DNA of 64,000 nucleotides from Promethearchaeota archaeon. Its GTDB lineage: Archaea > Asgardarchaeota > Lokiarchaeia > Sigyniarchaeales > SOKP01. Positions 3,451 to 64,000 of this stretch are shown one piece after another. The stretch covers positions 13,765 through 77,764 of the forward strand of contig JBHLPW010000019.1 of assembly GCA_048939015.1 (NCBI GenBank). Direction: 5' to 3'. Each line of letters starts with the position of its first letter. Within the stretch, counting starts at the first letter, position 1. The translations under genes were made by a program, and so were the position numbers. A model generated the notes under the pieces. The model saw only the letters and a program-made list of their open reading frames with translations. It did no database searches and was not told the DNA's origin.

Positions 3451-5352
3451 TTATAAACTATAATACTCTATGATATTCAAATCAGTCTGATAAATTCCAT
3501 GATTTACAGTCTGATGATAATTATAGGGTATAATTTCTTCGGCTTTCTCAACTTTTAACTTAAGTTTTATTGAAGGCATCCAAAATGTTTTATTTATATG
3601 TTGATATTCAGCCATTACCATATAGAGAAATTTGCCTTTTTTCTTTGGAATGATTTTAGTTTTGATTTTAGTCATTTCATTAGCTTTTAACCTTTTAATC
3701 CTTGTATACTCTAGCTTAGATTCAAAAGAATCAGACATAAAGAAATATATCTTTATATCCTTAATTTCACTTAAGTTAGGGTTCTCAATTATAACCGAAA
3801 TATTTTCTGGATGATCTAGTTTGAGTTTTTTATTCTGTACGTTAAGATCTATAAAAATAGGATATGGTATAGTTTTTTCATCTAGATCAAAACTTATATC
3901 AATGAGTTTTTGAAGATAAGGTTTGAATTTTAAACCAAATTGATTTTTTTGTTCTTTTAAAGATAAATTTTGCTTATTTCTTAACTCTTCAAACTCTTGA
4001 AGCATATAATTAATACTTTTTAAGATAATTTTATCAAATTCTGAATGTTTGACAGAAATAATTGATTGAAATTTATCATAATATTCAGACTCAGAGTTTT
4101 GAAGTAATAGATTTTCAAAAATTTCCTTAATAAAGGATTCTAAGAGTTCATCTAATTGAACCAAATTCTTATGTTCACTATCAAATTTCTCTATAATTTT
4201 TTCGAAATGAGTAATGTCCTGTAAAAAATCGCTTAACGAATTTAATAATTCAACAGCTTCAGAGATATAGGCTTCAAAAGCCTTTGATATCATTGCTTCT
4301 AACAATATATTGAATTTTCTTAAATTTTTATTTTTATAATTAATAAATTCTGTGCGATAAGATTCTAAATAATTAATTAATTTTCCAGAATGTAATTTCA
4401 ATAAATTTCTTTGATATTTTTGATATTGTTCAGAAGCTCTTTTTATCCAATTCCCAACAGTGTTTAACTTTTCAAGATTGTTTTCTTTATTAAAAATAAT
4501 ACTCTCTTCCAAAGTATCTGTAGATAACAATGGACAGTCTATCTTTATTTTGTCTAATACTTCGAGTGTATTACGCTCTAGTCGGTAAATATTTTCTATT
4601 TGATTGTATAAATTAATTTTTTGAAAATTATCAGCTTTAACTTCAATTAATTTGTTAAGTAAACTCTCTAACTTGTCAGAATAATATTTAGGATTGTTAT
4701 TTAGAAGCTTTCTTAATATCGCAGCAAATTCAGTAAGAATGATATATATTTCCTTTTTCTCATATATTTGGTTATTATCATTCTCTAAATGAACAATATT
4801 ACAATAATCCACAATATTCTGATAATTTACTTCTACAAAATGGTAATAATTAGCACATCTCTCAGGATATACTGAATTTTTAGCTAAAAAACTATAATAT
4901 AAGCCAAGTAATGATTTATTGATAATATAAGAGTTATGTCTAAAATCTTCAAATTTCTTTTTAATTTTATTATCTTTGATATAAGGTATTAGATAGTATT
5001 CAATAATAACTTCTAAATTACCCGCAGAACGAATTGAATTAAAAAGTCTAAAAGGATTAATTTCTATGTCATCTAATTTAGTTATAATGAGATGTCTGTA
5101 TTCATTGAAATCTGAGTTAAGACTATAGAAATATGATTCAATTGAAGATTTTCTTCTTTCAAGTTCTGAATTTTTAACTGGTTTTTCATTTTTAGATAAG
5201 GAGAGGCTTAAAATTTCAGATAAATAATGTTTAAGAGAATAAACAGATTCCATATATAATGTTCTTGCTCCACAATAAGGACACTGAGTTTCTGAACCCT
5301 TTATAATAGGTAATCCGCTTCCGCATTTCTTGCAAGGCATAAATGAGTTCAT
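3451..5352 (-). CDS. Hypothetical protein: N-terminal Zn ribbon, long helical region, C-terminal Ig-like beta domain
   Basis: CKKC...CPYC; helical core; C-terminal beta pattern ISVIIENPNLSEIKDIKI...IIPKKKGKF. Confidence 0.6.
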   Translation of the reverse strand: MNSFMPCKKCGSGLPIIKGSETQCPYCGARTLYMESVYSLKHYLSEILSLSLSKNEKPVKNSELERRKSSIESYFYSLNSDFNEYRHLIITKLDDIEINPFRLFNSIRSAGNLEVIIEYYLIPYIKDNKIKKKFEDFRHNSYIINKSLLGLYYSFLAKNSVYPERCANYYHFVEVNYQNIVDYCNIVHLENDNNQIYEKKEIYIILTEFAAILRKLLNNNPKYYSDKLESLLNKLIEVKADNFQKINLYNQIENIYRLERNTLEVLDKIKIDCPLLSTDTLEESIIFNKENNLEKLNTVGNWIKRASEQYQKYQRNLLKLHSGKLINYLESYRTEFINYKNKNLRKFNILLEAMISKAFEAYISEAVELLNSLSDFLQDITHFEKIIEKFDSEHKNLVQLDELLESFIKEIFENLLLQNSESEYYDKFQSIISVKHSEFDKIILKSINYMLQEFEELRNKQNLSLKEQKNQFGLKFKPYLQKLIDISFDLDEKTIPYPIFIDLNVQNKKLKLDHPENISVIIENPNLSEIKDIKIYFFMSDSFESKLEYTRIKRLKANEMTKIKTKIIPKKKGKFLYMVMAEYQHINKTFWMPSIKLKLKVEKAEEIIPYNYHQTVNHGIYQTDLNIIEYYSL

Positions 5353-16534: not shown

Positions 16535-16609
16535 GGCCCGGTAGTCTAGTATGGATAGGGCGCTGGCTTGCGGAGCCAGATATCGAGGGTTCAAATCCCC
16601 CCCGGGCCA
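16535..16609 (+). tRNA. tRNA-Arg (anticodon GCG)
   Basis: Acceptor stem GGCCCGG/CCGGGCC-A; anticodon arm CTGGC-TT-GCG-GA-GCCAG; T arm GAGGG-TTCAAAT-CCCCC; no intron. Confidence 0.95.
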
Positions 16610-60216: not shown

Positions 60217-61341
60217 ATGAAAAAAGGAAAAAAAAAAGATCCCTTCCACACTCCAGTTCTATTGACTTTAAAAGCATATAAAAGAATTGTAGGTTATGCA
60301 ATAAGATATGCGAGTAATGAGCTTAAACCAGAAAAATGGCGTGAAGTTTATGGAATTTTAATTGGATCTATCGAAGATAATTCAAAAGTAATTGTGAAAG
60401 ATGCTATTCCTATGATAGTTGGAGATCGAGCTGGAGTAAAATATGAAAATAAACAATACGTAGATATGGCTCAAATTGATGCCACAATTTTCGAAAGATC
60501 TATTCAAGATGACAAAACTGATTTTATTATAGGATGGTGGCACACACATCCTGGTTTTGGTTTTTTTTATAGTCCAATTGATTGTATGACCCAATTAGGA
60601 TATCAAATCCCTAATCCATACGCTGTAGGGTTAATATTTGATCATTGTGAGAAAGAATCTGATACTCATTTTTTAGGAATAGCGGGATTAAGACTTAAAG
60701 ACCCTGAATTAGGAATTTCCTCAACCTATAACTTAATAGAACTGAATTATGAGTTTGAAGAGAAAATAATGTTAGAAAAAGCTGAGAAAGTTATAAAAAA
60801 AGTCAATAAAAATATAGAAACTGTCTTAAAGGAAGTAGAATACATTGATGAGGTGCTTCGCAAGAAGGCTTTAGCTCAATTACAACGAAATTATGGACTA
60901 ATATTAGTACCTAAGGAAGATATTATAATCACTGACAATGAGGAGATAGCAGAAGAGGAAGATCAATATTTATATGAATGGGACCCTGAGTTTTTTAAAA
61001 AATCTTACAGGATTCCAAAATTTAGAGAAAAAATAGAAAATGTTATAGCAATGGCTTATGATGAATTGGATCAATTGATTGAAATTAATGCAAAAGAGAA
61101 ATATGAAAATAGACAGGAAAAATTAATTAAGAAAATCCAAAGTATTCTGAAAAAACCGAATGAATGGTATGACAAACTGATGGATGATTTTTCTAAAAAA
61201 ATTGAAATTATTTTTCCATTATATTCATATCTAGATACTAATGAAAGAAAAGTTATCGAATATTTTGAAGAGAGAATTTCAGAATACTCTAAGATTTTAG
61301 ACGAGTTAAATAAGAGATCAAATTTAATTTTAATTGAATAA
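60217..61341 (+). CDS. MPN+/JAMM metalloprotease with C-terminal helical extension (Rpn11/CSN5-like)
   Basis: EVYGILIG; IGWWHTHPGFGFFYSPID matches H-x-H-x7-S-x2-D; TQ..YQ. Confidence 0.88.
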   Translation: MKKGKKKDPFHTPVLLTLKAYKRIVGYAIRYASNELKPEKWREVYGILIGSIEDNSKVIVKDAIPMIVGDRAGVKYENKQYVDMAQIDATIFERSIQDDKTDFIIGWWHTHPGFGFFYSPIDCMTQLGYQIPNPYAVGLIFDHCEKESDTHFLGIAGLRLKDPELGISSTYNLIELNYEFEEKIMLEKAEKVIKKVNKNIETVLKEVEYIDEVLRKKALAQLQRNYGLILVPKEDIIITDNEEIAEEEDQYLYEWDPEFFKKSYRIPKFREKIENVIAMAYDELDQLIEINAKEKYENRQEKLIKKIQSILKKPNEWYDKLMDDFSKKIEIIFPLYSYLDTNERKVIEYFEERISEYSKILDELNKRSNLILIE

Positions 61342-61495: not shown

Positions 61496-61822
61496 ATGGT
61501 TAATGAGACTACTATCATAATAAAACACCGAAATGATAAAGATAAGTCGATTAAAGACGCTATCTTTGCATTTTCTGGAGGTAGAAAATCACTTTTAATT
61601 AAGGGTGAAGGAGATGAAATCAGTACCGCTGTAGAAGTAGCTGAAATTCTAAAAAGTCGAATGTATCCTAGAATTGAAATAGCCAACGTGTCTTTAGGGA
61701 GTCGTCCTTATTTTGATACTAGACAACGTGGTTATTATAATAAAAATTATAAAGTAAATAAGAAAAAGATCGATATAATTTCTAATATTGAAATCACTCT
61801 TCAAACCAGATCAACAGTCTAA
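61496..61822 (+). CDS. Divergent Alba-family protein
   Basis: LLIKGEGDEISTAVEVAEIL...SLGS...ISNIEITL aligns to Alba VIKARGRAISKAVDVAE...SxIEI. Confidence 0.7.
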   Translation: MVNETTIIIKHRNDKDKSIKDAIFAFSGGRKSLLIKGEGDEISTAVEVAEILKSRMYPRIEIANVSLGSRPYFDTRQRGYYNKNYKVNKKKIDIISNIEITLQTRSTV

Positions 61823-61826
61823 ATCT

Positions 61827-62009
61827 ATGAATTCAAGAGTTAAAAACAATTTTGAACATTTAGGACCTCTGCTAGACGAGCAAAGAACTCCAGCAATATG
61901 TGAGATTTGTAAGAATTTCATTTATAAAAGAGTTTATTACGATGAGAATTCGGATAAAAAAAGGAAAATTGTTTTTGTATGTAAGAATTGTTTAAATAAC
62001 AATAAATAA
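61827..62009 (+). CDS. Small zinc-ribbon protein
   Basis: ATG at 61827 just after the Alba stop; CEIC...CKNC. Confidence 0.65.
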   Translation: MNSRVKNNFEHLGPLLDEQRTPAICEICKNFIYKRVYYDENSDKKRKIVFVCKNCLNNNK

Positions 62010-62854: not shown

Positions 62855-63229
62855 TTATATTTTTGAAATTTTTGTATTCAATCCATTTCGGGCTTTTAAA
62901 AGTAGTTCAAGATTAATATTTATTTTTCCAATACGATTAACTTTATTTGGCATTTCAATGTCTTCAATTGCTATTATCAATTCATCAGTTTTAGGATTAT
63001 AGAGAATATCGCCCTTTTCAACACTTGTTATAGATTTAGGATTAGTACCTTTATATATTTCAACACCAGGCAACGTCCAATAATCTTTCGAACCAAAACT
63101 ATATCTCCCTCTAAGTACAAATGGTAATTTATTAATTAGAGCATCTGCAGTTAGAGGAGAGAGATGACGGATTATTTCACCTTCAATATCACCAATTCCG
63201 AATAAAGTAATCTTTATCAATACACTCAT
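62855..63229 (-). CDS. Cyclophilin-like fold protein (DUF369 type)
   Basis: SPLTADALINKLPF, VEKGDILYNP, VNRIGKI. Confidence 0.75.
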   Translation of the reverse strand: MSVLIKITLFGIGDIEGEIIRHLSPLTADALINKLPFVLRGRYSFGSKDYWTLPGVEIYKGTNPKSITSVEKGDILYNPKTDELIIAIEDIEMPNKVNRIGKININLELLLKARNGLNTKISKI

Positions 63230-63317
63230 GTTTTAAAAATAATATAATTTCCAATATTTATATTATTTTAATTAGAGTGATAAAATAAGATAAAAATTTT
63301 GTTCGTAAAAATCAAAG

Positions 63318-63352
63318 ATTTTGTTATTTCCTTTAATAACAAAATTTAAATA
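63318..63352 (+). promoter_or_regulatory. 11-bp palindrome abutting a BRE/TATA box
   Basis: ATTTTGTTATT-TCCTTT-AATAACAAAAT (63318-63345) followed by TTTAAATA (63345-63352), about 24 nt upstream of 63376. Confidence 0.55.
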
Positions 63353-63375
63353 CTCAAATTGACATATAATTATCT

Positions 63376-63830
63376 GAAAAGGACAATATGCATTGGAATT
63401 AGATACAAAATTACGGTTTTTACACCAATTTAATAGTTACGATCTAATAACCCATTTCTTTATTTGTGACTTTTTTTTTGTTCACATCCTCTTGATTCAA
63501 ATTAGATTGACATCATTTAAATTATAATTCATTTGTTCCTGCAGTGCTCAATACTGTGAAAATAATGGATCAAATAGGCACTTCATAGCAGGTAATTACA
63601 AATCTCGCTTAAAATTACGATTTTGGTATATGAAATGTTGAAAATTTGAACTCTTGTTGAAGATAAGATAATAATTATTGATACATGAGACATCAAACCA
63701 TAATACCTATAAATCGGAATAAATAAATAAATAGGAGCTTTGATTTCATAATTGCTTCATCGGATAATCATATTCAAGTCCCTTTGAATCAATTATTCTT
63801 CGACTAATCGGAGCACCTATTGTCCTTTTC
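63376..63830 (+). ncRNA. Candidate large structured ncRNA (~455 nt), family unknown
   Basis: Perfect 13-bp terminal pairing GAAAAGGACAATA/TATTGTCCTTTTC; nested TTGATTCAAA/TTTGAATCAA and other helices; no tracked ORF; TATA upstream and T9 downstream. Confidence 0.55.
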
Positions 63831-64000
63831 TCTTTTTTTTTAATTTTTGAATATCATCCTCAAAATCAATATCAAAGAAATTGTACTCATTTTCAATTTT
63901 AAAGCAGAAAATTTTCTTTTGATTTAAAAGTAGAAGATTTAAAGCCTCCCAAAGCGTTTTAATTCCATTTCTTTGGCAAAAATTTAAAATTTCGATTACT
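63817..64000 (-). CDS. C-terminal end of a nucleotidyltransferase-like protein (5' part outside window)
   Basis: Manual translation ...KTLWEALNLLLLNQKKIFCFKIENEYNFFDIDFEDDIQKLKKKRKGQ*; DID..DD terminal motif. Confidence 0.55.
   Translation of the reverse strand, partial: VIEILNFCQRNGIKTLWEALNLLLLNQKKIFCFKIENEYNFFDIDFEDDIQKLKKKRKGQ

Follow-up and report, generated by a model that had tools for sequence, protein, structure and literature searches.

A candidate gene for a structured noncoding RNA of about 460 nucleotides, conserved in one family of Loki-type Asgard archaea

Near one end of the 64-kb stretch of Promethearchaeota DNA that was analysed here (the window), the list of open reading frames leaves a gene-free gap at 63230-63816, between two genes on the minus strand. 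Does this gap hold a gene of its own? An earlier note on the same DNA had proposed a stand-alone large noncoding RNA (ncRNA) of an undescribed class, with a miniature transposable element (MITE) as the alternative. We conclude that 63376 to about 63835 on the plus strand is very probably a real structured ncRNA gene of about 460 nt that belongs to a new family. The elements of the locus are as follows.

62855-63229, minus strand: gene for a cyclophilin-like protein (Pfam Cyclophil_like2), to the left of the gap
63333-63352, plus strand: archaeal-type promoter, a purine-rich BRE-like stretch followed by the TATA box TTTAAATA at 63345-63352
63376-63835, plus strand: predicted ncRNA of about 460 nt, with the conserved promoter and the oligo-T tract as bounds of its putative ends
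63833-63841, plus strand: oligo-T tract (T9), the putative terminator
63817-63999, minus strand: 3' end of an NTP-transferase gene from the list of open reading frames, convergent with the RNA and truncated by the contig end; the full-length orthologue matches Pfam NTP_transferase

The ends of the element, 63376-63388 and 63818-63830, form a perfect 13-bp inverted repeat, as the earlier note had claimed. Five distinct 13-nt repeats of this perfect kind, with arms at most 600 nt apart, occur in the window, and a first-order Markov simulation gives a mean of 6.2 such seeds. Other perfect inverted repeats of 13 to 15 nt lie at 3621/4183, 16051/16423, 49609/50080 and 59675/60171, a number at chance level for this composition. 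The folding energy of the element (RNAfold, -84.9 kcal/mol) shows no significant drop below that of shuffled sequences: in this comparison, which the earlier note had proposed as a check, z is -1.6 on the plus strand, below significance, and -1.3 on the minus strand. Its GC content of 28.7% is that of the genome average (window mean, 28.8%), unlike that of the known stable RNAs of the same genome (RNase P RNA, 46.7%; SRP RNA, 42.6%; a tRNA, 62.7%), which counts against the proposal. Since the terminal repeat and the fold are at chance level in an AT-rich window, the case for an RNA gene rests on comparison with relatives.

The element matches its own locus alone in the 4.86-Mb host assembly. 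BLAST recovered the whole 631-nt region, at 93-66% identity, from 23 of the 24 other species sampled in the same GTDB genus and gave no convincing match in sister families. A covariance model of the 3' domain, called R1, was scanned over 151 genomes of the order and found one copy per genome in 92 of them, all in family f1 (genus g1, 47/52; g14, 38/42; g16, 5/8; g23, 1/1), and in none of 19 genomes from three sister families; it scores 117 bits on the plus strand versus 36 on the minus strand. The genera missed by R1 (g12, g13, g15 and g18) also have the element at the same syntenic position, in a diverged form that keeps the TATA box, the 5' GGACAAUAG..GCAUUGG and the 3' CUAUUGUCC with its T-run. 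In total, the syntenic position is confirmed to hold the element in eight genera, all in one GTDB family of Promethearchaeota. An exact two-block pattern was present in 46 species genomes, all of them Asgard MAGs and mostly titled Promethearchaeota, with a few labelled Thor-, Hermod- or Hodarchaeota by their submitters. A search of 400 genomes of the phylum with the 5' pattern found it in 76 of 134 genomes of the family, including a ninth genus, g17, by pattern match only (3/6). The same pattern matched 20 genomes outside the family; ten were checked, and all ten matches had neither the TATA box nor the 3' partner and are thus chance matches. A genome of a sister family (G030) has its cyclophilin-like homologue in another neighbourhood with no gap, and no copy was found in two large or closed sister-family genomes. 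These searches suggest that the RNA occurs in a single family of Loki-type Asgard archaea and nowhere else.

Some individual copies deserve mention. One MAG with 9% contamination (G138) has copies of the 3' domain on two contigs, C57 and C117, more likely from mixed strains than from a true duplication. In two species, loci L028 and L029 (genomes G018 and G021) have copies without about 100 nt of the 5' domain, including GCAUUGG, and keep the terminal helix and the other domains; these shortened copies count against the proposal.

The gene order around the element was identical in 14 of 14 inspected loci from genera g1, g14, g16 and g23: from left to right, a VTT/DedA-type membrane protein (minus), the cyclophilin-like protein (minus), the RNA (plus), the NTP-transferase (minus) and methionine aminopeptidase (minus). 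Further upstream in the window, 1.5 kb from the RNA, lies a gene for an Alba-family RNA/DNA-binding protein; 61496-61822 and 61788-62009, both on the plus strand, are the Alba gene and an ORF that overlaps it. This ORF of 73 amino acids, a CxxC zinc ribbon, has a sub-threshold Pfam match (18.3 bits, cut-off 23.8) to SNAPC3, a subunit of the snRNA-activating complex; the match is probably mere zinc-ribbon likeness. A JAB/MPN-domain protein of 374 amino acids (60217-61341, plus strand) has a C-terminal extension of about 240 amino acids without a Pfam match.

The conserved locus has signals of its own at both ends. The promoter motif TTAATAA.AA.ATTTAAATA is near-invariant in all homologues, whose lengths range from 372 to 528 nt, and its end lies 22-23 nt from the first base of the terminal helix in every one of them. 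In the window this distance is 23 nt, from the TATA box to G63376, close to the 24 nt that the earlier note had given. Because archaeal TATA boxes are centred at about -26, the first transcribed base is predicted within 1-2 bases of G63376. The RNase P RNA gene of the same genome has TTTATATA at a comparable distance upstream, about 24 nt. At the other end, every homologue has a T-run of 7-13 nt downstream of the helix; the T9 of the window stands where the earlier note had placed it. U-tracts of U4-U7 terminate archaeal transcription, and a Lokiarchaeal aCPSF1 cooperates with them (PMC8716108). A BRE/TATA of its own at about -25 and an oligo-T tract, both conserved, are what a stand-alone archaeal ncRNA gene should have, and we propose that the RNA is separately transcribed from its own promoter, with both ends at the positions predicted from these signals. 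A scan of metagenomes matched 45 DNA contigs of 1.2-194 kb; none was RNA-sized, and there is thus no hint of transcript-derived assemblies.

Within these bounds, comparison of the homologues points to the following helices and conserved blocks, all on the plus strand.

63376-63388: 5' strand of the terminal helix P1, GAAAAGGACAAUA, perfect over 13 bp in the window
63818-63830: 3' strand of P1, UAUUGUCCUUUUC, in which CUAUUGUCC is invariant in 78 of 79 sequences
63390-63396: GCAUUGG, likely the 5' strand of P2, invariant and found in every genus including the most diverged (exceptions: L028 and L029)
63414-63427: small hairpin CGGU/ACCA (ACCG in most relatives), with changes on both sides at 4 of 4 pairs
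63466-63485: hairpin GUGAC/GUUCAC with U9 (63471-63479) in its loop; the U-tract is conserved in homologues
63534-63592: central helix, UGUUCC..AGUGC (63534-63547) with GCACU..GCAGG (63578-63592), and a variable tip; based on covariation
63618-63716: long-range domain-closing helix, CGAUUUUGGUAUAUG (63618-63632) with CAUAAUACC..AAAUCG (63699-63716); based on duplex z-scores
63651-63660 and 63680-63692: enclosed blocks CUCUUGUUGA and GAUACAUGAGACA, among the best-conserved columns of the 79-sequence alignment
63730-63745: near-invariant block AAUAGGAGCUUUGAUU
63748-63796: 3' hairpin P13, AUAAUUG-C-UUCA..GGA with UCC..UGAA-U-CAAUUAU; based on covariation after realignment with R1
63806-63814: AAUCGGAGC, 3' strand for P2 (63390-63396) or for P12 (63737-63745), as alternative pairings

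Global RNAalifold on a 22-sequence MAFFT alignment gave almost no structure, the alignment being wrong in the variable regions and, for this clade, in the 5' strand; clade-wise folds and anchored tests were therefore used. In a blind search for helices that took in every pair of columns, G/U-rich low-complexity pairings drowned out everything else. An eight-helix model, counted on an alignment of 79 sequences from four genera, pairs in 83.9% of cells versus 40-48% in slid controls, and none of 500 shuffles reaches its covariation score. Canonical pairs make up 83.6% of cells on the plus strand versus 73.9% on the minus strand, in line with the remark of the earlier note that G-U pairs favour the plus strand. 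Compensatory changes maintain P1, the central helix and the 3' hairpin, as is expected of a stand-alone ncRNA. In P1, the core GGACAAUAG/CUAUUGUCC is paired in 97.2% of cells; the pair that follows it (columns 17/637) is G-C in 35 sequences, U-A in 34 and A-U in 5, the pair at columns 11/643 is seen as C-G, U-G and U-A, and g18, a diverged genus, has A-U in place of the outermost G-C. The invariant GCAUUGG faces UCGGAGC in the window, CUAAUGC in g13 (7/7 pairs) and UCAAUG in g15, the changes in g13 and g15 improving the pairing. In the central helix, AGUGC/GCACU has double changes at 5 of 5 pairs with 79% of cells paired, and UGUUCC/GGAGCA at 4 of 6 with 76% paired, hence 9 of 11 for both; in the clade of the window GGAGCA has become AUAGCA, and by a register shift the pairing CCUGC/GCAGG substitutes. 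The lower stem of P13 has compensatory changes at 6 of 7 pairs after the R1 realignment, e.g., from AUAAUUG/CAAUUAU to CAGAUUUG/CAAAUCUG. After realignment with the covariance model, the whole 3' domain is paired in 86.4% of cells versus 33-52% in the control, with double changes at 12 of 23 pairs, and 0 of 500 shuffles reach its covariation.

Other parts of the model vary more between clades. The small hairpin pairs in 62.7% of cells family-wide, and its closing pair is a C-A mismatch in this genome. The stems that flank the U-tract differ by clade (UGUGA/UCACA, UCCGA/UCGGG, UCUGG/CCAGA); 55% of sequences have a stem of 5 bp or more around the U-loop versus 33% after shuffling, weakly above the control. 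The domain-closing helix, which encloses the invariant blocks CUCUUGUYGA and GAUACNNGAGACA, recurs with other sequences in other clades; most clades of the genus give it duplex z-scores of -2 to -3.7. For P12, GCUUUGAUU (63737-63745) is an alternative partner of 63806-63814, with 9 bp in the window; 91.6% of cells pair, double changes occur at 1 of 8 pairs, and the helix is broken in three clades. Constrained folds with P2 or with P12 differ by 3 kcal/mol, and energy does not separate them. CUCUUGU/AUAGGAG pairs in 89.6% of cells with double changes at no pair. The RNA has purine blocks (GGAGC three times, and GAGAC) and pyrimidine blocks, which make several mutually exclusive pairings possible. 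An internal AUAGG was rejected as the partner of the 3' CCUAU, since changes in this 3' strand are matched at the 5' end rather than in the internal copy.

The fold drawn in the earlier note from the single sequence survives in part. As a whole it pairs in 59.2% of cells versus 36-45% when slid (78 distinct homologues), and about half of its internal helices find no support. Its terminal helix is supported, and the inward extension of that helix holds for GC/GC and UUG/CGG, with the reservation that the same 3' strand can pair in P12 instead. Among its three 5' hairpins, GGU/ACC is borne out and UGUGAC/GUUCACA is so in this clade only, and GUUA/UAAC (52%) is not. The homologues give no support to its second long-range helix, UUGAUUCAAA/UUUGAAUCAA, which is paired in 56% of cells and competes with a covarying hairpin, nor to GCAGUG/UACUGU (58% of cells), CACUUCAUA/UAUGAAAUG (43-56%) and GUAAUU/AAUUAC (about 51-54%). 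Its remaining helix, AUGAG..AUCAAA/UUUGAU..UUCAU, is ambiguous at 71%, and the CCUAU/AUAGG part of it finds no support at 57%.

Could the gap instead be a MITE, a missed protein gene, or a spacer conserved at the DNA level with chance pairing? A MITE would resemble the element in its size of about 450 bp, its lack of coding capacity and its perfect 13-bp terminal inverted repeat, although such repeats are expected by chance in the window. Dispersed copies were sought in the 4.86-Mb assembly and only the locus itself was found, so the element is not a MITE; it differs from one in its single copy, its fixed synteny and its vertical inheritance across the family, and the arms of the repeat covary as an RNA helix. 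An ORF of 44 amino acids does exist on the plus strand, but in-frame stop codons interrupt it in 74 of 78 homologues, 47 homologues have it out of frame, and a period-3 conservation signal is absent: the autocorrelation decays steadily in the element, while that of the neighbouring gene has maxima at lags 3 and 6. Chance pairing would have to account for compensatory changes in several helices. We therefore regard all three versions of this explanation as extremely improbable.

Nor does the element belong to a described family. At the gathering threshold of Rfam 15, whose families include OLE, GOLLD, ROOL, group I and II introns, snoRNAs and ribozymes, the sole match in the window is a tRNA at 16535. 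With E-values up to 10, the best matches in 63150-64000 reach 15-18 bits against thresholds of 35-64, and 62 kb covering 17 homologous loci gave no match with E up to 5; the Rfam scan that the earlier note had called for thus places neither the element nor its homologues in any family. That note had also seen no motifs of RNase P or SRP RNA, and the covariance models agree. For archaeal RNase P RNA (RF00373; at least 84 bits required), 63150-64000 has no match up to E = 10, and the genome's own copy, at 129 bits, is on another contig (G000:C19:1733-2055). Archaeal SRP RNA (RF01857) likewise has no match in the region, the genome's SRP RNA being at C111:42426-42662 (63 bits, E = 1.4e-13). As a candidate, Y RNA with its Ro60 RNP was rejected: PF05731 (TROVE) was detected in 0 of 151 genomes of the order, and the positive controls were detected. 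A literature search found no published description of the RNA. The proposal of a stand-alone large ncRNA of an undescribed class is thus upheld by its single copy per genome, its fixed syntenic position, the promoter, helix and terminator conserved in eight genera, the compensatory changes and the absence of coding capacity.

The 3' end of the RNA gene is shared with its neighbour. The NTP-transferase reading frame of the window ends with a stop at 63817-63819, a codon that abuts the 3' strand of P1 and overlaps it. In most of the 14 loci the stop falls inside the 3' strand of the terminal helix; in L030, L126 and L135 the listed ORF extends deeper into the RNA. This overlap of about 25 nt is retained in each genus examined. 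In the window, the complement of the 3' helix strand and T-run (63817-63841) encodes the last codons of the NTP-transferase (..KKKRKGQ, stop), and the C-terminus of the protein and the end of the RNA are therefore mutually constrained. Across homologues, the overlapping C-terminus is just 33-70% identical at the protein level while the RNA blocks are invariant. The arrangement invites the idea of a cis-acting element, in which convergent transcription and the overlap would control the NTP-transferase, or divergent promoters the cyclophilin-like gene, the RNA being a by-product. The position of the NTP-transferase stop at the 3' strand of P1 in every genus and the two divergent promoters less than 150 bp apart fit this idea, which is nonetheless very unlikely in our judgement: such interference requires neither conserved internal sequences nor covarying helices 100-400 nt from the overlap, and P1 sequesters the overlapping segment.

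A difficulty for a full-length RNA is the U-tract inside the gene. A run of 5-12 U stands at about +95 to +105 and is kept by 78 of 79 homologues; the copy in the window is the internal T9 at 63471-63479, about which the earlier note had already cautioned. In archaea, where U-tracts act as transcription terminators (PMC8716108), such a conserved U5-U12 tract should promote termination, and it counts against the full-length reading. The main product might accordingly be a short 5' RNA of about 100 nt that stops at this tract, with full length reached by rare read-through as in an attenuator. To this explanation we assign a thin chance: covariation links the 5' end to the 3' strand of P1, and no part of the RNA is better conserved than the 3' domain, a pattern that makes sense only for a functional full-length RNA. 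A second U-tract stands just before GAUACNNGAGACA in most genera and has been lost from the clade of the window.

We propose an architecture of four domains, closed by P1 and P2: a 5' region of hairpins that includes the U-tract, the central helix and its variable tip, a domain with CUCUUGUYGA and GAUACNNGAGACA, and a 3' hairpin. What could such an RNA do? By analogy with known large RNAs, we tentatively favour a stable, protein-bound scaffold that would act in trans, a mechanism that we consider possible rather than probable. In this scaffold, exonucleases would be kept off by the paired ends, proteins or another RNA would dock at the invariant blocks (GCAUUGG, the GGAGC/GAGAC purine blocks and the U-tracts), and a conformational switch may arise from the competing pairings of AAUCGGAGC. 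The invariant blocks could also be read as single-stranded seeds (GCAUUGG, CUCUUGUYGA, GAUACNNGAGACA) that pair with mRNAs, rRNA or tRNA and are presented by the body of the RNA, i.e., as those of a trans-acting antisense regulator. Blocks of 7-13 nt that stay invariant across genera while the surrounding helices change fit such sequence-specific recognition. An antisense role is unlikely all the same, because the element, at 460 nt and with several covarying domains, greatly exceeds known archaeal antisense sRNAs in size, and because in g13 and g15 a partner within the RNA itself compensates for changes opposite GCAUUGG. Large ribozymes are typically multi-domain RNAs with invariant internal-loop nucleotides, and the element resembles them in size, internal loops and architecture. 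A new class of catalytic RNA is nevertheless a highly doubtful reading: no Rfam ribozyme family matches, a compact catalytic core would not usually have so low a GC content and so weak a predicted stability, and no substrate or cleavage site is apparent.

Several known systems come close to the element. With archaeal RNase P RNA (RF00373) the element shares a single-copy stand-alone gene, a TATA box about 24 nt upstream, an end-closing helix and a multi-domain body in the range of 300-450 nt, whereas the conserved regions of RNase P RNA were not noticed in it and its GC content is 28.7% rather than 46.7%. SRP (7S) RNA (RF01857), an abundant housekeeping RNA, has similarly paired termini and an elongated multi-helix body; it is universal, and the element is limited to one family. 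OLE, GOLLD, ROOL and raiA are orphan large ncRNAs of bacteria, all in Rfam, whose function was unknown at discovery. The element is like them in exceeding 400 nt, in its restriction to a single lineage and in its invariant blocks interleaved with covarying helices; it is archaeal, not bacterial, matches none of them in sequence or structure and, unlike them, has ordinary housekeeping genes as neighbours, with no dedicated partner gene adjoining. Sm/LSm sites are single-stranded U-tracts flanked by stems, and the element has comparable features (U-tracts between stems, A-U5-9-G/A, a 3' oligo-U tail); this is a resemblance only, as no Rfam snRNA model matches and U-tracts are common in an AT-rich genome and also serve as terminators. 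It is quite improbable, in our view, that a new Asgard-specific ribonucleoprotein machine is built around this RNA, either as an Sm-like particle on the U-tracts or as a new large ribozyme. If that were true, the invariant loops would perform a defined biochemical task beyond that of regulatory antisense seeds.

Structured RNAs of more than 400 nt are rare, and almost all that are understood are ribozymes or the cores of major RNP machines. The present candidate poses puzzles of its own, in its genome-average GC content and in the conserved U-tracts within an archaeal RNA gene, and its impact is limited by its confinement to one family. Asgard archaea are thought to be the source of eukaryotes and are their closest living relatives. 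By the comparisons made here, the element is under strong purifying selection across one family of Lokiarchaeia-type Asgard archaea, and it offers a concrete, clonable target for the study of Asgard RNA machinery beyond the universal set.
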